From Promethearchaeia archaeon (lineage in GTDB: Archaea > Asgardarchaeota > Lokiarchaeia > Sigyniarchaeales > SOKP01): DNA of 34,284 nucleotides. Made by a program: the position numbers and the translations under genes. The DNA is taken from NCBI GenBank assembly GCA_029856045.1, contig JAHQWG010000024.1, positions 1-34,284 of the forward strand, read 5' to 3'. The notes beneath the pieces were generated by a model. That model was not told where the DNA came from. It saw only the letters and a program-made list of their open reading frames with translations, and searched no databases. Below, piece after piece: positions 8,978 through 17,571 of this stretch (positions are counted from its first letter, which is position 1; the number at the start of each line of letters is the position of its first letter).

Positions 8978-9340
8978 TTAGAGAGATTTATAATCTGCAA
9001 AAGCCGCACGTGCTAACCCAACATAATTATCCGAAATCTTGTAATAATTTGTATCATTTTTAGATTTTTTAATTAAAAAATTTGTATCTATTTTCTTTTT
9101 TAATGAAGTCATCATTGTACTTAATGTTACTATACCAATATAGCCAAATCTTTTCGCAAACCTAACTAATTCATTTTCTGAATGCCAATTACCGTCTAAC
9201 ATGATTTCTATGAGTCTATTTTTTCTAACATCTTTAATTCTCTGAATACGATTTAATAACATTGTATAATTAGGCTTATAATATATTTCCTCAATTTTAG
9301 ACAAATCATCTATTTTTTCCATTTTCTTCTTCAAAACCAC
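8978..9340 (-). CDS. Small basic protein, probable winged-helix DNA-binding fold
   Basis: RLIEIMLDGNWHSENELVRFAK...TLSTMMTSLKK...FLIKKSKNDTNYYKIS fits three helices plus a wing hairpin. Confidence 0.55.
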   Translation of the reverse strand: MVLKKKMEKIDDLSKIEEIYYKPNYTMLLNRIQRIKDVRKNRLIEIMLDGNWHSENELVRFAKRFGYIGIVTLSTMMTSLKKKIDTNFLIKKSKNDTNYYKISDNYVGLARAAFADYKSL

Positions 9341-9806: not shown

Positions 9807-11735
9807 TTGATTTATATGAAACTATTAGAACCTTTACTAATAAATAAATTAGAGATTCGAAATCGCATTATAATGCCTGCAATGGAAACAAATTTAGGCA
9901 ATAAGAAAGGAGAAATTACAGAAAAGCTTATGAAATGGTATGAATTAAGAGCGAAGGGTGGAGTTGGATTAATTATTGTAGAACCAGCTTATTTTGAGAA
10001 AAGGGGTAGTAGTACTAAATATATGCTTAGCATTTCAAGCGACAATAAGATTGAAGGTTTTACTAAATTGACAAAATTAATAAAAAAGTATGGAGCAACC
10101 GTTTTATTACAAATATATCATGCTGGAGCTCAATCTCCCTCCATGATAACAAAATGCTCGCCTGTTTCACCTTCTGGTGTTCCTTGCAAATTAACGACAG
10201 ATCAACCATTAGTGTTAAGTAAGCGAGAGATACATGAAATTATAAAGGGATTCACAGATGCTTCAGATAGAGCAAAAAAGGCATCTTTTGATGGGGTTGA
10301 AATTCATGCTGGGCATGGATACCTATTAAACCAATTCCTTTCAGAGAAAGATAACAAACGAACGGACGAATATGGTGGTAGTTTAGAAAATCGAGCAAGA
10401 GCATTAATCGAAACATTAACTGCAGTTAAAGGGAGATGTGGTAAAGATTTCATAGTGTCTTATCGTTTAAATGGTAACGATTACATAGAGAGGGGCTTGG
10501 AAGTTGAGGAAACAGCTAAAGTTGCCAAAATGTTAGAGGATACTGGAGTTGATCTTGTCCATATTTCAGCTGGTATTTTTGATTCAAAAGGATATCCAAC
10601 TGTGCCTTATATGAATTATCCAAAAGGTGTTTTTTCAGAATACGCTGCAAGAGTCAAAAAAGAATTAACAAGAACGCCTGTTGCTGCAGTTGGAAGAATA
10701 AACACTCCAGAAATTGCGGAAGAGATTTTAAAAGAAGGAAAAGCAGATTTAGTGGCAATTGGCAGGGGATTAATAGCAGATCCTTATTTTGTAGTGAAAT
10801 TAAAAGAAGGTAAAAGAAATTTAATTAGGATCTGTATGGGTTGTAATGCCTGTTTAAACCGAATATTAAGTATGAAGTCTGTTGCTTGTGCAATAAATCC
10901 TAATGTAATTGCCTCTGATGAAGATTTTAAGAATGCAAAAGGAAAGAAAAAGGTACTAATAATCGGATCTGGCCCAGGGGGGCTTGAGGCAGCTAGAGTT
11001 TCAAAGTTAAGGGGTCATTATGTATTATTAATTGATAAAGGGGATAAAATTGGAGGCACAATGCATCTTGCAAAAGTGGCTCCTATGAAGGCTGAAGTTG
11101 AAAATGCCATTGTTTTTTATAAGAATATATTAAAAGAATTAGAAGTGGAAATTCGTTTAAATACAGAATTTTCACAAGAAATAATTAGCGAATTTAAACC
11201 AGATGTTGCAATTCTAGCAACTGGATCTGTTCCTTTTATACCACCGATAAAAGGATTAAATCAAACTTCTTATTATGTGTACGATGAAGTTCTTAAAGGT
11301 AAAATACCAGATGGGGAGAAAATAGCAATTGTGGGTGGAGGAATGGTTGGTTTAGAAGTTGCAGAATATTTATCACACTTGAATAAAGCTATAACCATTA
11401 TTGAAATGTTGCAAAGAATTGGTATGAACGTCTATGCGTTTGTAGGAAAGGAAGTAATTCCAATAATCGAAGAGGATAAAAATATCAAGATTTTTGTAAA
11501 TACAAAAGTTGAGGAGATCCAAGATTACAAACTTATCGGTGTAAATAAGAATGGGACTATTATTAAGATTAAGTTTGACGATTTAATAATTGCTATGGGT
11601 GCCCAGCCAAATTGTGAAATTGAACAAGAGGTAAAAAATCTTGTGCCTGAAGTATTTTTAATTGGAGATTATAAAAAAATAAGAAAAATTTTTGATGCTG
11701 TAGAAGAAGGTTACAAAATTGCTCTTAAAATATAA
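9807..11735 (+). CDS. NADH:flavin oxidoreductase, old yellow enzyme family with Fe-S and FAD/NAD domains (2,4-dienoyl-CoA reductase/BaiCD-like); ATG start probably a few codons in
   Basis: NRIIMPAM, EIHAGHGYLLNQFLS, NKRTDEYGGSLENR, GRGLIADP, Cys cluster CMGCNAC...CAINP, Rossmann motifs GSGPGG and GGGMVG. Confidence 0.93.
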   Translation: MIYMKLLEPLLINKLEIRNRIIMPAMETNLGNKKGEITEKLMKWYELRAKGGVGLIIVEPAYFEKRGSSTKYMLSISSDNKIEGFTKLTKLIKKYGATVLLQIYHAGAQSPSMITKCSPVSPSGVPCKLTTDQPLVLSKREIHEIIKGFTDASDRAKKASFDGVEIHAGHGYLLNQFLSEKDNKRTDEYGGSLENRARALIETLTAVKGRCGKDFIVSYRLNGNDYIERGLEVEETAKVAKMLEDTGVDLVHISAGIFDSKGYPTVPYMNYPKGVFSEYAARVKKELTRTPVAAVGRINTPEIAEEILKEGKADLVAIGRGLIADPYFVVKLKEGKRNLIRICMGCNACLNRILSMKSVACAINPNVIASDEDFKNAKGKKKVLIIGSGPGGLEAARVSKLRGHYVLLIDKGDKIGGTMHLAKVAPMKAEVENAIVFYKNILKELEVEIRLNTEFSQEIISEFKPDVAILATGSVPFIPPIKGLNQTSYYVYDEVLKGKIPDGEKIAIVGGGMVGLEVAEYLSHLNKAITIIEMLQRIGMNVYAFVGKEVIPIIEEDKNIKIFVNTKVEEIQDYKLIGVNKNGTIIKIKFDDLIIAMGAQPNCEIEQEVKNLVPEVFLIGDYKKIRKIFDAVEEGYKIALKI

Positions 11736-11842
11736 AAAAAATGTTTCTTTTGATACTTATATATCCATTATCTCTAATCTTTGGTAAAAAAAAAATTAAT
11801 CAGAATTCGTTTATAGACACTTTTTATCTTGGCAGTATCATT

Positions 11843-12130
11843 TTAATTCGCATTTGACTTTTGCAAAATTTTACGGTGCTTTATTATATCAAATTTGGTT
11901 ACTGCTAAATTCCCAAAATTATATAAAAATGGATATTTTTGTGCAAATATTTTGATTAATTCAAAACCTTTTGACGTAATCGAATATAACGATTCAGTGA
12001 ATTCATCTAAATTAAATATCGAGATCAATTCGTTTTTCTTAAGAGACTTGCATCGATGATAAAATTTTAATCGATCCCCCTCGATTTTTAGCCGAAATTC
12101 TCTAAAAGAAATAGATTTTAATGAAACCAT
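11843..12130 (-). CDS. Hypothetical protein
   Basis: 95-aa ATG-initiated ORF filling the gap between genes; no motif recognised. Confidence 0.4.
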   Translation of the reverse strand: MVSLKSISFREFRLKIEGDRLKFYHRCKSLKKNELISIFNLDEFTESLYSITSKGFELIKIFAQKYPFLYNFGNLAVTKFDIIKHRKILQKSNAN

Positions 12131-12177
12131 TTAATTAGGGAAAAAAAAACCCTTATCTTCAAATATATGAAATAAAA

Positions 12178-13722
12178 TTAATCTAAAATATCCGTATAAC
12201 AATCCTCTGGATAGAAGTTATTTTCGTCCTTATCATGATTAGGATACCATATCTGAGCAAAGAATGGATTTTTTTTAGCTATTTTATCATAATTCCAAGG
12301 TGGAGGCAAACATTTTGGGCACCAATGACCAGCTTTAATTATAGTATATGGTTTTGCTTCAAATTCATGATCGAAAGCACATTTCCACTTGAGTGTGGTA
12401 TAAATATCACCGTCCCATTCTGTTGCGAGACATTTTCCTCCTCTAAATTCGGCAGCTCCTTGTAAATCTCCCAATTCAATTTGTTTTTTAGATTCATCAT
12501 AACCGTGGTCAAGTCGGAGCCATTCAAGTTCAGGTTTCATTTGAGGCATATCAACCCCCCAATCGGGGATTGACTCGTAGGTTTCATAATCTTTATAAAA
12601 AGCGGAGATTCTCATATCATTATTGTTTTCATACCAATGGAGCGTTCCATTCTTGGTAGATGCTAACTCTTTCATTCTTTTATATGTTGCTTCTTGAACC
12701 TTCTTTTGTATTTTTGGAAACTTTATGCATAATTTAGCAATTAATTTCAAATACCACGAACTACTTTTAACTAACATTTCATAATAGTCTTCCATTGAAT
12801 CTCTCCAATTATGTATGTATTCATTAAGAATATGACTGTCTTCAAAATATTGCATGTGAAAATTTCTTAATGCAAACCAATTACGCTCTGTGACTGCTTC
12901 AATACTTCCTAATCCATTTATTTCCATTGACTTATTCAGTAAATCATAATATGTACATCTACAAGCAGGCCCTCCAGCCATGTTATATACTCTACGCCAA
13001 AAATCGGAATTATCAGGAATATCCAAACAATTGATAATTCCTTGTCCTGCATCTCTCGCTGTGTTGTTTTCCATAAATGAATCGATTGGTTGATGAAACA
13101 TAATTGGATCTAGCATATTATCTGTAGTCATAATAAAAGTTTGCCGCAATGAAGCCCAATGTTTTATATTTGATTCTAAAACCGCACTTTCTCCATTAAT
13201 CTTAGTTACAGCATAGAAATCAAATATAGAAGGTTTAAGAGGATCTCCTATTCTACCCATGTGAATACTTTGAAGGCGATCACCAGTTTCAGCTACGGTT
13301 CCTATATAAATAAGTTTTATATGCTCTACGCCATTTGGCTGCGACTCAATTGCTTTGACAATATAATGGATTGCCGTGGTATTAACTGCTTTTGCCATGC
13401 TGGGGTTATGATCAGCTGCAGGTGAAATGAACGCCATTGTACAAAGACACCAATCGATTCCATTACATGCTTCTAAGACATCATCATAATTGGTTGCGTC
13501 TCCCCAGACTATTTTCAATCCTTTGCCCTCTACTATTCCATTACCAGTTATCGATTTAATTCCACACTTTCTCTCATATTTCTTAAACAATTTTTTGTTT
13601 TTCTTAGATGGGCGTTGTAAAAGAACAATATCATATTTATCTCTTTTTACCCATAAATTTTTAAAAGCCTCGAATCCCATGGAACCACTTGCTCCAGCCA
13701 AAAATATTTTCTCTCTTTTCAT
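12178..13722 (-). CDS. NAD-dependent epimerase/dehydratase (extended SDR) with C-terminal Cys/His zinc-ribbon domain
   Basis: GASGSMG Rossmann motif, catalytic YAVTK (YxxxK), C-terminal WKCAFDHEF...GHWCPKC. Confidence 0.85.
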   Translation of the reverse strand: MKREKIFLAGASGSMGFEAFKNLWVKRDKYDIVLLQRPSKKNKKLFKKYERKCGIKSITGNGIVEGKGLKIVWGDATNYDDVLEACNGIDWCLCTMAFISPAADHNPSMAKAVNTTAIHYIVKAIESQPNGVEHIKLIYIGTVAETGDRLQSIHMGRIGDPLKPSIFDFYAVTKINGESAVLESNIKHWASLRQTFIMTTDNMLDPIMFHQPIDSFMENNTARDAGQGIINCLDIPDNSDFWRRVYNMAGGPACRCTYYDLLNKSMEINGLGSIEAVTERNWFALRNFHMQYFEDSHILNEYIHNWRDSMEDYYEMLVKSSSWYLKLIAKLCIKFPKIQKKVQEATYKRMKELASTKNGTLHWYENNNDMRISAFYKDYETYESIPDWGVDMPQMKPELEWLRLDHGYDESKKQIELGDLQGAAEFRGGKCLATEWDGDIYTTLKWKCAFDHEFEAKPYTIIKAGHWCPKCLPPPWNYDKIAKKNPFFAQIWYPNHDKDENNFYPEDCYTDILD

Positions 13723-13883
13723 TTTTGATTATACAAGTATTTTTTCTTTATTTTAATCTATTTCGAAGAATTATTATATTTGTTATTCCAATGAATTTGG
13801 GAAAAATATAATTGGGTTAATAGCAGCAAGGAAAATTTTTTAATAATTTCTTATTTTTATAGGTATATTTTTTTGTATATCAA

Positions 13884-14183
13884 TTAAGTTTTCCAATTTT
13901 CCTTCTCCAAATTTAGAAAATTTTGAAGTTCTTCTTGAGTCATTACCGTTAATTCGGTATCTAATTCCACACCAAACTTTTCAATAGAATTTTTTACACT
14001 GTTAATAAGAGAATCTTTGATTGGGATATTTGGGAAGGGTAATGCAAAAATGACTTTAACCTTACTTTCATTTATTTCGATCTTTTTAATCATCCCGAGA
14101 TCAATCAAAGAGCAATCAATAAACGGATGCTTTACTTGTGCTATTTCCTTATGAATTTGTTCTTCTGAGAAATTTTCAGGCAT
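13884..14183 (-). CDS. DUF59 (FeS_assembly_P; SufT/MIP18-like) domain protein
   Basis: VKHPFIDCSLIDLGMIKKIEI...VKVIFALP matches the V-x-DPE-x-x-x-(S/N)-I-V-D-L-G pattern. Confidence 0.75.
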   Translation of the reverse strand: MPENFSEEQIHKEIAQVKHPFIDCSLIDLGMIKKIEINESKVKVIFALPFPNIPIKDSLINSVKNSIEKFGVELDTELTVMTQEELQNFLNLEKENWKT

Positions 14184-14234: not shown

Positions 14235-15353
14235 TTATAATAGATTTTCAGGTATTTCATCATTATAATATTGCTCCCGTGTAACCCAATTTTCTGAAAA
14301 TTCCGGAATCATTCCCAATATTGATCCACCAATCCAAACCGAAAACATGCGTTCCTTAGGAGCAATTATTTTAACAATTTGTATTTTCTTTTTCTTTTTA
14401 GCTAAAGATAATTCTAATTCTTTATAGAGTCTAGATTTAAAATTAGGAAACATTGATGAACCCCCGGAAAGAAAAATATTGCCTAGTAATTTTGGTCTAA
14501 TATCTACATCACACTCTTCTATGCATTCTAAAATTGCTTCATGTAATGGAGTAATTTCTAAATTAAAAAGTGAAGGATTAAAGATTAATTCAGGGATTAA
14601 AAATCTAAGCTTATCTATTTCTAAAATTTCACCATCTGGTAAAGAAAAAGGTTTTTTATATTCTTCAAACCGTGTCGTATCTTCTTTAAAATCCAATGAA
14701 ACAAAACACGCTTTTTCTTTTATAACTCTTATAATTTGTTTCTTAACAGACGAATCTGCAGTAAATCCTGCTTGTTTTAATTGATGTTCCATAAATTCAG
14801 TAATCAAGTTACCCCCAAGATCTAATATCTTAATAGCATGGGATAACTGAAAACCTTCATAAACTGGAACAATTCTAGTGCTACTATCTCCAATTTCAAT
14901 AATTAAACCTGTTTGAAACCCACCCGAATAAAGTGTTAGAAGTGAATCCAAAACTGGATAAAAACTAGCACAATTAAATTTCTCTAAAAAAATATCAAAT
15001 AATTTTCTTTTATCTTGTTTTGGACTTAAAGGATGAACAGCATATAATACATTAGATACAATTGGATCAACACGTAGATTATAAAATATATACTCAAGAA
15101 TTTTTTCATAATAATTCCAATCATGAATTCTACCATTTTGTATCGGATGAAAAAGCTTATATAATCCCATTGCATCTTGGATTTCATTACCTATGCAAAT
15201 GTCACTAATTTTTTCTCCATATGTGATATCTACATTTTGATATTTTGGTACTCCAACTAAAGTAAAAAAAACACTATTTGGATGGTCTTCACCGGCAAAA
15301 CCAATTTTTGTTGAAAATTGTCCTATGTCCATGATTATTGTTACGTTTCCCAT
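14235..15353 (-). CDS. Actin-family protein (divergent Asgard actin-related protein)
   Basis: Colinear with eukaryotic actin: DIGQFSTKIGFAGEDHP, EIGDSSTRIVPVYEGF, IKEKACFVSLDF, LPDGE, RFLIPELIFNPS, CDVDIRPKLLGNIFLSGGSSMFP, IIAPKERMFSVWIGGSIL. Confidence 0.95.
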   Translation of the reverse strand: MGNVTIIMDIGQFSTKIGFAGEDHPNSVFFTLVGVPKYQNVDITYGEKISDICIGNEIQDAMGLYKLFHPIQNGRIHDWNYYEKILEYIFYNLRVDPIVSNVLYAVHPLSPKQDKRKLFDIFLEKFNCASFYPVLDSLLTLYSGGFQTGLIIEIGDSSTRIVPVYEGFQLSHAIKILDLGGNLITEFMEHQLKQAGFTADSSVKKQIIRVIKEKACFVSLDFKEDTTRFEEYKKPFSLPDGEILEIDKLRFLIPELIFNPSLFNLEITPLHEAILECIEECDVDIRPKLLGNIFLSGGSSMFPNFKSRLYKELELSLAKKKKKIQIVKIIAPKERMFSVWIGGSILGMIPEFSENWVTREQYYNDEIPENLL

Positions 15354-15416
15354 TATTGAGACTTACTCTTTTAATTATTTAAACTAATTGAAGCATAAAT
15401 CAAATTTGTCCTTTTT

Positions 15417-16163
15417 TTAAACTAATAATATCCTTAATGGTACATATGTAGTTTCGGGAATATAAGCCTCTCCATATCTAGAATTTATTTCATTGCCTCT
15501 TAATATAGCGGTGTCCTCTGCCCAATCTAGAACGCGTGATAATACTTCTTTTTGTGAGGCATACACTTGATTAAATATTTCTTTTTTCTTTTCCCAATAT
15601 TCTTCAATATCTACGATAATAAAGACTGAACTTTCAATATATTGAAACTTGCAAGAAGGACTCTCATAATAATAAACACCATATGGTATCCAAGATCGTT
15701 CATGTCCTCCATAAGCTTTGCCAGTACAACAGTGATATATTGCCTCTCGAGAAATAAAGGATAAATTTCGGTGCACTCGATGAAAATCAGTGTGATGAGG
15801 TATTAGGATTAAATGTGGTTTATAATCTCGAACCATATTTGTAATACGAGATATTTTCGAACGACTTATTTCTAAAGAAGTATATTCTAACTCTATAAAT
15901 TTACATCTTAAAATTTCTGATAATTTTTTTAATTCATTTTTTCTTTGAGTTAAAATAGTATCTTCTTGTTCATTCTTAGCATAACCCCCTAAACCAGAAG
16001 TAGCAACAACAACACAAATTTCCGCGCCCATTTCCAAGTATTTTAGGAGTGTTCCACCGCAACTTACTATTTCATCATCCGGGTGTCCTGCAAAAACCAT
16101 AATTCTTTTGGGAACAACTATAGGAACATCTTCTTCACATATAATAAAACGCTTTTCTGGCAT
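15417..16163 (-). CDS. PIG-L/LmbE-family metal-dependent deacetylase
   Basis: GHPDDE metal motif, CGGTL, R-x-x-E, and HTDFHRVH as a variant of the HxDH motif. Confidence 0.88.
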   Translation of the reverse strand: MPEKRFIICEEDVPIVVPKRIMVFAGHPDDEIVSCGGTLLKYLEMGAEICVVVATSGLGGYAKNEQEDTILTQRKNELKKLSEILRCKFIELEYTSLEISRSKISRITNMVRDYKPHLILIPHHTDFHRVHRNLSFISREAIYHCCTGKAYGGHERSWIPYGVYYYESPSCKFQYIESSVFIIVDIEEYWEKKKEIFNQVYASQKEVLSRVLDWAEDTAILRGNEINSRYGEAYIPETTYVPLRILLV

Positions 16164-16332
16164 ATGATATAGCTTTTTTGCCGTAATATTAAAAATTTAT
16201 TAAAAAAAATCCTCTCAGATTAATAATTAAAAACTTAAATAGAACAAATTTTTTAAAATCCAACAACTACTTCAATTTAAGTTAAAGTATCTATGATTAG
16301 TCTGTATTAATATAAAATTAAATAATAGGTAT

Positions 16333-17025
16333 TTAATCTCCGCGCATAATTTTTTTTAAACGATTTAATTCATCTAACATTTCATCTCTTAAAGTACTTA
16401 AACTTCCTCCTGCTTGAGATGCAACCGTTGGACTAGGTGTAGTTGGAGGTGTTCCAAGAGATGGTGCTGCAGGGGGTCCAGAACGCTTTGCAAATGAGGG
16501 AGTCGAAACTACTGGACCAGCCTTAGAAGGTGGTCCTGCTTTTCCTGGAGCTGGTGGTAATTTTGGTGGGGGAGGTAAATTTTTTGAAGGTGGTCCAGCA
16601 TTTATAGGTGGTCCAGCATTCGTAGGTGGTCCAGCCTTCGTAGGTGGTCCTGATGGGGGTCCTTTTTTAACTGGAGGTCCTGGTCTTTTAGGCGGTCCTG
16701 ATATCGGTGCAGATGGTGTTGCTGCAGCTGATGGAACGGCAGTAGTTTTTCCGCCAGCTCCACCTAATAAAGCGAATAAAGTACTTGCGGCTTGAGTTTT
16801 TGCAGTACCACCAGCTTCTACTTCCGGAGTTAGCTTTACTGAAGAAGAACTAACTGTTTTTCCTTTTACGACTTTAACTCCTTTAATATCATTCTCTGCT
16901 TTTTTCAAGGATTTACCAAAGTCATTTATTGTATCAACTGTATCCTGTAAAACTTCAGATAAATCACCTAAACTTTTACGAAGATATTTAATAACCCGTG
17001 TAACTGTTTTTTCATCAGAAGGCAA
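16333..17025 (-). CDS. Proline-rich protein with helical N- and C-termini carrying LKK (WH2/beta-thymosin-like) motifs
   Basis: TTG start. N-terminal helix ending INDFGKSLKKAE, central GPP/PPPP low-complexity region, C-terminal LRDEMLDELNRLKKIM. Function is inferred only. Confidence 0.75.
   Translation of the reverse strand: MPSDEKTVTRVIKYLRKSLGDLSEVLQDTVDTINDFGKSLKKAENDIKGVKVVKGKTVSSSSVKLTPEVEAGGTAKTQAASTLFALLGGAGGKTTAVPSAAATPSAPISGPPKRPGPPVKKGPPSGPPTKAGPPTNAGPPINAGPPSKNLPPPPKLPPAPGKAGPPSKAGPVVSTPSFAKRSGPPAAPSLGTPPTTPSPTVASQAGGSLSTLRDEMLDELNRLKKIMRGD
16589..16650. repeat. Intragenic 18-bp tandem repeat (three full copies plus a partial) encoding (T/I)(K/N)AGPP
   Basis: ggtggtccagcatttata / ggtggtccagcattcgta / ggtggtccagccttcgta / ggtggtcc. 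Confidence 0.9.
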
Positions 17026-17295: not shown

Positions 17296-17571
17296 TTACG
17301 CCGACTGAAGCTGAAAGAGTATTGAAGCGTGAGGTATGAAAAATTTATCTTTAGATTTAATTACAACTGTGTGGAAATACTCGGCTAAACCTAAAAACCC
17401 TCTTATAACAGATTCATCTTCTTCAAAGGTAAATCTTACACTCGCTATCGCTGATTTTCCAGAAAAACTAACGTCTTCATAAACCCGCTCATCTATTAAT
17501 GGAATCTTGAGTTCGTTTACAATTTCATAAACACGTTTGATAAATAATTCTTTTTTAGGCAAGATTTTCAC
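17296..17571 (-). CDS. Small hypothetical protein, possible Sm/Hfq-like beta-barrel
   Basis: Isolated 91-aa ORF in very AT-rich surroundings; N-terminal helix followed by a beta-strand pattern. Confidence 0.65.
   Translation of the reverse strand: MKILPKKELFIKRVYEIVNELKIPLIDERVYEDVSFSGKSAIASVRFTFEEDESVIRGFLGLAEYFHTVVIKSKDKFFIPHASILFQLQSA

Follow-up and report, generated by a model that had tools for sequence, protein, structure and literature searches.

The window analysed here is the whole of contig C23 (JAHQWG010000024.1, 34,284 nucleotides) of the Promethearchaeia archaeon assembly GCA_029856045.1, and it encodes on its minus strand a proline-rich protein of 230 residues, hereafter PRO. 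To judge by its sequence, PRO is a real and conserved protein, and it belongs to an unnamed family that we found throughout the Asgard phylum in two forms, one soluble and one apparently membrane-anchored, which is a new observation. The family occurs in most of the Asgard classes sampled, and no other source of it was found. We consider it somewhat probable (about 0.55) that PRO is the soluble form of a pan-Asgard modular cytoplasmic tether, which presents a docking helix to a conserved partner. The N-terminal module would position or oligomerise the protein, through a small neighbouring protein, w16, in the soluble forms and through the membrane in the anchored forms; the spacer, rich in polyproline II conformation, would serve as an extended flexible arm; and the terminal helix would be the docking element, packing zipper- or groove-style on a cytoplasmic partner common to all these lineages. 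Whichever partner this is, naming it would add a component to Asgard cell biology. A first-pass annotation of the window had proposed a different role, that of a WH2/beta-thymosin-like actin partner encoded beside its cognate actin-related gene. The N-terminal "thymosin" motif and the adjacent actin paralogue turned out to be poor guides, and the C-terminal helix and w16 are the parts of interest.

The PRO family and its terminal helix

The source assembly comprises 3.34 Mb in 55 contigs at ~30% G+C, with a completeness of 100 by marker-gene count. The PRO gene begins with a TTG, which lies three codons downstream of an in-frame TGA, is the first start codon after it and stands behind a GAGTGA Shine–Dalgarno-like site. 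Its product has the highest proline fraction of the ~3000 open reading frames (ORFs) in the genome, 16.5% against a proteome mean of 3.6%, and its richest 60-residue window reaches 42%. No Pfam or NCBIfam family was found for PRO. The protein database holds 157 relatives, all named hypothetical, and 35 of the 41 genomes of the order have a match; the database relatives of PRO and w16 carry the labels Promethearchaeota or Lokiarchaeota.

We aligned PRO at the level of the order (alignment A1) and measured conservation as the mean share of rows carrying the commonest residue. The architecture noticed at first pass, a helix, a Pro-rich tract and a second helix, is kept among the orthologues. The expectation that the termini would be conserved while the Pro tract varies also held (mean conservation 0.93 in the C-terminal helix and 0.55 in the Pro tract); of the LKK tripeptides, however, the N-terminal one is confined to the genus, and in the C-terminal one the second Lys varies across classes. 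The A1 profile matched 160 of 301 genomes sampled across the phylum, and hits from other classes reach the last profile positions. With the window PRO as reference, all 20 loci fetched from other classes have a Pro tract followed by the signature helix.

Two types of the protein could be distinguished. Type A, to which the window PRO belongs, has ~200–250 residues and appears soluble, with a coiled-coil N-terminus, while type B has ~270–340 residues and begins with a transmembrane segment, basic residues and a SHOCT-like coiled coil, followed by the Pro tract and the helix. The best 19-residue Kyte–Doolittle mean is 1.8–3.5 in type B, followed by basic residues, and at most 1.06 in type A. Since the transmembrane segment is followed by basic residues, the C-terminus of type B is predicted to be cytoplasmic. 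The Pro tract and the terminal helix are the constant element of the family, and the N-terminal module is exchangeable between the types. The neighbours of type B genes are housekeeping genes (RpiA, a PIN-KH ATPase and a tRNA intron endonuclease). Type B invites comparison with tethers such as ZipA and TonB. The shared logic would be to reach from an anchor to a partner, in type B by way of its transmembrane helix, coiled coil, Pro-rich spacer and terminal binding element. There is no homology between them, however, and where ZipA and TonB carry a folded domain at the end, PRO has a single helix.

The C-terminal consensus in A1, L(S/G)SLRDEMLxELxRLKKIMRG, is invariant in Lokiarchaeia and recognisable phylum-wide, and the helix is among the most conserved short helices in these proteomes. 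Across classes the consensus becomes L[RKQ]x[EAQ]M[LM]xE[LIM]x[RK][LI]Kx[ILFYM][MFI]. The residues that never change in it are L, M, E and K, and their spacing fits one face of an unbroken helix. The helix is always found within 2–8 residues of the C-terminus, and it is present at that end in all 20 of the loci from other classes. Within it, [LI]-K is conserved across classes. The residue that follows varies (K, A, E, T, R, S or G), and instead of T or V the fourth position carries I, L, F, Y or M. No Gly or Pro stands between the helix and the C-terminal LKK, and the hydrophobic spacing continues through the LKK; the whole thus reads as a continuous amphipathic zipper-like helix with the LKK inside it. 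When a profile of the C-terminus (A3) was searched against the PDB, it matched GCN4-type zippers alone, and weakly (E at least 0.16), with no WH2, thymosin, MIM or MIT chains among the matches.

A zipper-like helix could also pack on its own family. In such a self-association, which we regard as improbable, the C-terminal helix would pack on the coiled coil at the N-terminus, either within one PRO molecule or between two, giving closed monomers or head-to-tail networks linked by the Pro-rich spacers. Both termini look heptad, the N-terminus matching designed antiparallel coiled coils and the C-terminus weakly matching GCN4-type zippers, and types A and B both have a coiled coil near the N-terminus. 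However, the zipper matches are not significant, the C-terminal helix is far more conserved than either N-terminal module, and it is near-identical in types A and B despite their unrelated N-terminal domains. The occurrence of the same helix on unrelated N-terminal domains therefore favours an external common partner over self-association.

A specific external partner that we considered is Vps4. PRO would then be an ESCRT-linked adaptor, its C-terminal helix serving as a MIM1-type ligand of the Asgard Vps4 MIT domain, perhaps aided by the MIM2-core-like APKLP, as in the tails of IST1 and ESCRT-III. The helix does lie at the extreme C-terminus behind a flexible Pro-rich linker, the ESCRT-III tails of the genome end in similar K/E/L helices, and APKLP fits the regular expression of the MIM2 core (PMC8970359). 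PRO also shares with one ESCRT-III tail of the genome the pattern hydrophobic-x-x-E-hydrophobic-x-[KR]-L-K-[KE], which occurs in 4 of 3006 ORFs and is C-terminal in 3 of these. This pattern, however, was devised with PRO in view, which makes its count circular. When the ORFs were instead ranked with a weight matrix derived solely from 19 Asgard ESCRT-III tails in other genomes, PRO came 788th of 3006, with a score of 5.3 against 17–26 at the top, and neither MIM nor MIT chains are among the PDB matches. The MIM1/Vps4 reading, which the eye and the hand-made pattern had favoured, thus failed the non-circular test, and we consider it very unlikely. Nor is there a general gene linkage to ESCRT genes, which lie ~10 kb from PRO in one genome and far away in four others. 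In the former, a closed f23 genome (G075, locus L051; f-numbers denote the GTDB families sampled, f1 being the organism's own), PRO and a w16 homologue lie at that distance from both ESCRT-III genes. The proximity is probably coincidental, since it was not seen in the four other genomes.

The sole other copy of the helix motif in the genome is in a 555-residue Sec23/24-like protein (C44:3362–5029, minus strand) with a zinc finger, a trunk/vWA domain and a beta-sandwich. The protein has a patchy distribution: it occurs in f11, f16, f20 and f23, yet of the 15 f1 genomes sampled just one has it. We set this link aside as chance, because the motif is absent from the orthologues of the Sec23/24-like protein, one of them 61% identical, and because the protein is patchy where PRO is common.

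The small neighbour w16

Clustering of the neighbouring ORFs revealed one recurrent partner of type A PRO, a protein of 90–100 residues homologous to w16 of the window. It adjoins PRO in f1, f5, f6, f7, f16, f23 and f25, and lies ~3 kb away in one of the five f2 loci examined. Within f1 it is adjacent in 13 of 14 loci, and in five families of other classes, 10 of the 11 type A loci have it no more than 1.7 kb away. We further compared presence with type. In type A lineages w16 was found in 62 of 68 genomes of f1, 16 of 19 of f16, and all of those of f7 (4), f23 (6) and f25 (3), while it was not found in the type B lineages searched (f9 0/28, f31 0/11, f17 0/3 and f20 0/5). The phyletic spread of w16 matches that of the type A lineages only. 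The coupling of w16 and PRO thus holds across at least eight families, and it is new here. In the proposed tether, w16 would work with the soluble N-terminal module, in place of the membrane anchor.

By sequence w16 is restricted to Asgard archaea. It has 388 relatives at 75–99% identity, and its profile, searched against 1.84 billion proteins, retrieved 27 clusters, none longer than 115 residues. NCBIfam has no model for it. Although a model from the single sequence was poor (predicted local distance difference test score, pLDDT, 59.6), the alignment-based AlphaFold2 (AF2) model was confident (pLDDT 91.3), and it predicts an N-terminal helix followed by a beta-alpha-beta-beta-beta unit. Comparison of this model with solved folds gave no convincing match (best E 0.1 with Foldseek against the PDB, best Z 4.4 in a wide VIA-align search), nor did it point to profilin, gelsolin/ADF, roadblock or MIT folds. 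The missing match shows neither novelty of the fold nor a function. In the ESM Atlas, the structure rows for w16 were sub-domains of large DUF proteins, and feature searches gave no usable named match for PRO or w16.

Several points weigh against the tether reading. The continuity of the terminal helix is read from the sequence pattern together with the weak GCN4-like matches. For its docking role we have its position and conservation to go on, and for an interaction of w16 with PRO their gene linkage and co-occurrence. The invariant helix could serve self-association instead. Furthermore, in one f11 genus (loci L123–L125) w16 adjoins not a PRO gene but a gene for a coiled-coil protein of ~525 residues.

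That w16 neighbour is proline-poor and has a winged-helix-like C-terminus, and no PRO match is listed for the three genomes. With regard to orientation, w16 lies on the same strand as PRO in the genus studied here and is divergent from PRO in other f1 genera, so a local inversion is implied. In several relatives, the match to the w16 profile runs through a stop codon near the 5' end (one TAA or one TGA).

Actin linkage and the WH2 question

So far, the actin regulators known from Asgard archaea comprise profilins and gelsolin/cofilin-like proteins; to our knowledge, no proline-rich partner is among them, nor any nucleation-promoting or elongation factor. The three co-directional ORFs pointed out at first pass (PRO, a PIG-L deacetylase and an actin-family gene) are all present on the minus strand. 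The actin-family gene matches the Pfam Actin profile and solved actins over its full length. It scores ~299 bits to eukaryotic actins, however, and shares 43% identity with the Lokiactin that the genome encodes on contig C27 (at about 401059–402201). That gene is the canonical one of the three actin genes in the genome; it reaches 630 bits against a solved chain deposited as 'HC1 actin' and about 540 bits against eukaryotic actins. The actin gene of the window is a divergent paralogue, not canonical Lokiactin, and its orthologues were found within the order alone.

We then followed the linkage across genomes. The order w16/PRO, PIG-L, actin paralogue, 120-residue gene recurs in 14 of 14 loci from other genomes of f1; in two f1 genomes (L033 and L041) PIG-L is missing at this position, with PRO still next to the actin gene. 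The adjacency belongs to a syntenic block of eight genes that is limited to this one GTDB family. A topoisomerase and further unrelated genes lie in the same block, so that the synteny is not particular to actin. Three genomes of the sister family have the orthologous actin paralogue (48–56% identity) at a distance of 44–100 kb from PRO, and two closed genomes, of 1.42 Mb (f7) and 3.6 Mb (f23), contain PRO but only a canonical-type actin. The conserved order sought by the first-pass annotation was therefore borne out within the family, but it is lost in the sister family and in other classes. PRO is not tied to the actin paralogue, since the two lie far apart in the sister family and other classes that keep PRO lack the paralogue. 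The idea of a "cognate" pair is not supported, and the adjacency reflects family-level synteny, not a conserved functional pairing. The 120-residue gene that flanks the actin paralogue in relatives (8978–9340 in the window) was considered as a possible profilin and rejected, as neither a profilin in the PDB nor a Pfam family matched it.

The N-terminal INDFGKSLKKAE, which had been taken for a beta-thymosin-like motif, is confined to the genus, and the other PRO members in A1 read SLxKAxKDLK at this place. In this region the family profile matched designed single-chain antiparallel coiled coils in the PDB (8qae, E 2.9e-5). On the strength of this match we read the region as a heptad coiled-coil sequence, not a thymosin core, and the thymosin claim is not supported. 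Both LKK tripeptides are indeed present in PRO. In this Lys/Leu-rich proteome, however, LKK occurs 1354 times, 0.32 occurrences are expected per 230 residues, and one third of the proteins have one; LKK is uninformative here. A caution that short Lys/Leu-rich helices arise easily in an AT-rich proteome had been voiced at the outset.

No match to Pfam WH2 (PF02205) or thymosin was obtained for PRO (E ≤ 0.01), for nine relatives (E ≤ 1) or for ten C-terminal 40-mers (E ≤ 10), in searches in which the HMMER filters can drop very weak matches. EVH1 and VASP_tetra, the domains of Ena/VASP, likewise gave no Pfam match in PRO or the nine relatives; of the layout of EVH1 plus EVH2 (with its G-actin and F-actin binding sites and its tetramerisation helix), PRO has the Pro-rich middle alone. 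WASP, WIP and thymosin beta-4 resemble PRO in combining an amphipathic helix near L-K-K with proline-rich sequence, but the C-terminal LKK of PRO lies inside an apparently continuous heptad helix with no Gly-containing linker. With no Pfam match, no conserved LKK(T/V) and no WH2 chain among the PDB matches, the WH2 assignment is not supported, and PRO is not a recognisable WH2 or beta-thymosin protein. In Asgard archaea, WH2-like motifs have been described only inside two-domain gelsolins (PMC9433394; bioRxiv 10.1101/2025.11.30.690169), whose LKKT-type motifs contact actin (PMC9433394). One Odin-type relative of PRO gave a weak Pfam match to CCDC53, a subunit of the WASH complex (E 0.012, 16.5 bits against a cut-off of 24.6), which we set aside as sub-threshold and compositionally explainable.

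The first-pass idea can also be put in a weakened form. In an actin-linked scaffold, the coiled coil would oligomerise, the Pro-rich arm would recruit profilin or profilin–actin, and the C-terminal helix would bind the hydrophobic groove of Lokiactin or the adjacent paralogue. An archaeal precedent exists in arcadin-2, the crenactin regulator of Pyrobaculum, which is encoded beside an actin-family gene and binds the crenactin groove through a conserved helix formed by its last 17 residues (PMC5173319). Like PRO, arcadin-2 is an archaeal protein of ~200 residues that ends in a conserved helix; that of PRO has ~17–20 residues, and in one family its gene lies two genes from the actin paralogue. 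What sets PRO apart from arcadin-2 is its long Pro-rich spacer, its N-terminus (coiled-coil or transmembrane) and an actin linkage that is limited to one family. By analogy, arcadin-2 may be regarded as the closest functional precedent for the actin reading of PRO. Alongside it stands ParR with ParM, which we take to be a further comparison system.

The architecture of PRO also parallels WIP and Ena/VASP. Like PRO, Ena/VASP combines a coiled coil, which in PRO would likewise oligomerise, with a Pro-rich tract in the middle, and in both a Gly-rich stretch leads into a helix of Glu, Met, Leu and basic residues. However, PRO has no EVH1, its coiled coil is N-terminal rather than C-terminal, its repeats are GPPxAP rather than GPPPPP, and neither profile nor structure evidence connects the two. 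PRO may resemble the F-actin-binding segment of VASP in particular, a likeness that is a lead and not a test.

Consistent with the scaffold, the order of PRO, PIG-L and actin paralogue is kept across one family even where PIG-L is missing, the PRO family is Asgard-restricted like Lokiactin and profilin, and a near-invariant helix fits a very conserved partner. Against it stand the absence of a WH2/thymosin match at any threshold tried, the unconserved N-terminal LKK, and the C-terminal LKK, which has no helix-breaking linker before it and whose second Lys varies. Outside one family PRO and the actin gene are no longer linked, classes with PRO can lack the paralogue, and the conserved neighbour is w16, which has no match to profilin or gelsolin folds. 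Moreover, Loki and Odin profilins are reported not to bind VASP polyproline (as cited in PMC8410842), and the main text of a study of Lokiactin co-immunoprecipitation in L. ossiferum names gelsolins, profilin and an Arf GTPase but no such protein (bioRxiv 10.1101/2025.11.30.690169). In PMC8410842, polyproline motifs are described as widespread, without a defined partner protein, and a coupling of polyproline and profilin before eukaryotes as still debated. Taken together, we find the scaffold unlikely. The same holds for its fuller version, which we doubt, in which PRO would be a primordial actin-assembly or -sequestering scaffold, either oligomeric (soluble and w16-bound) or membrane-anchored, with the arm capturing profilin–actin and the helix docking in the hydrophobic groove of Lokiactin. 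If this were true, the Asgard ancestor of eukaryotes would already have had an activity of the Ena/VASP, WIP or arcadin-2 kind. The PRO family is a concrete, testable candidate for an actin partner, but the evidence does not favour the actin reading.

Features of the window and minor observations

Table 1. Genes and sequence elements of the PRO locus (positions in the window)
Feature	Positions	Strand	Evidence or remark
Actin paralogue, 372 aa	14235–15353	minus	Pfam Actin PF00022, 296 bits over residues 5–363
PIG-L family deacetylase, between PRO and the actin paralogue	15417–16163	minus	Pfam PF02585, 72 bits, E 7e-20
PRO, proline-rich, 230 aa, predicted soluble (type A) member of an unnamed pan-Asgard family	16333–17025	minus	ORF
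w16, 91 aa, Asgard-only small alpha/beta protein, conserved neighbour of type A PRO	17296–17571	minus	GTG start
N-terminal heptad coiled-coil region of PRO, residues 8–52, holding the genus-specific SLKKAE	16870–17004	minus	A1 and profile match to designed coiled coils
Short hydrophobic motif AKTxAASTLFxLLSG, residues 76–89	16759–16800	minus	A79, A80, L83 and L87 invariant in A1; mean conservation 0.83
Proline-rich spacer, residues ~98–205, GPPxAP-type repeats	16411–16734	minus	Length and sequence vary among orthologues
LPP(A/P)PKLPP motif inside the spacer, residues 150–158	16552–16578	minus	L150, P151, P154 and P157 (near-)invariant in A1; mean conservation 0.91
C-terminal helix LSTLRDEMLDELNRLKKIMRG, residues 209–229, family signature	16339–16401	minus	16 invariant positions within the order
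18-bp tandem DNA repeat, 3.5 copies, encoding (N/K)AGPPT units of the Pro tract	16588–16650

The congeneric orthologues of PRO have 214–226 residues compared with 230 here, which fits a gain or loss of repeat units. A search of proteins of 404–2000 residues for longer versions in which the module of Pro-rich tract and helix is fused gave none, which is weak evidence. Long Pro-rich linkers occur in other proteins of the genome too. In a Ras/Rab-like GTPase the linker is of the PEPEP type and a zinc ribbon stands at the C-terminus; a GTPase-containing protein has PKPAIPKPP repeats and ends in a coiled coil; the other two examples are a vWA protein and a coiled-coil protein with a zinc ribbon (C27:290578–291996, C47:11114–13105, C36:249479–251644 and C27:57389–58258). 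Pro-rich spacers may be a recurrent design in this organism.

On the other side of the actin paralogue, between it and a 103-residue gene, positions 9807–14183 hold four genes, for a flavin oxidoreductase of the old yellow enzyme type, a 95-residue ORF, a 514-residue protein resembling short-chain dehydrogenases/reductases with a treble-clef tail, and an FeS_assembly_P protein. These four have no counterpart at this place in two congeneric genomes, where the gap measures 0.35–0.96 kb, and the segment looks like a ~4.4-kb strain-specific insertion. Among public sequencing runs, no RNA data containing the stretch are listed; the stretch itself occurs in runs from marine-sediment and salt-marsh metagenomes.

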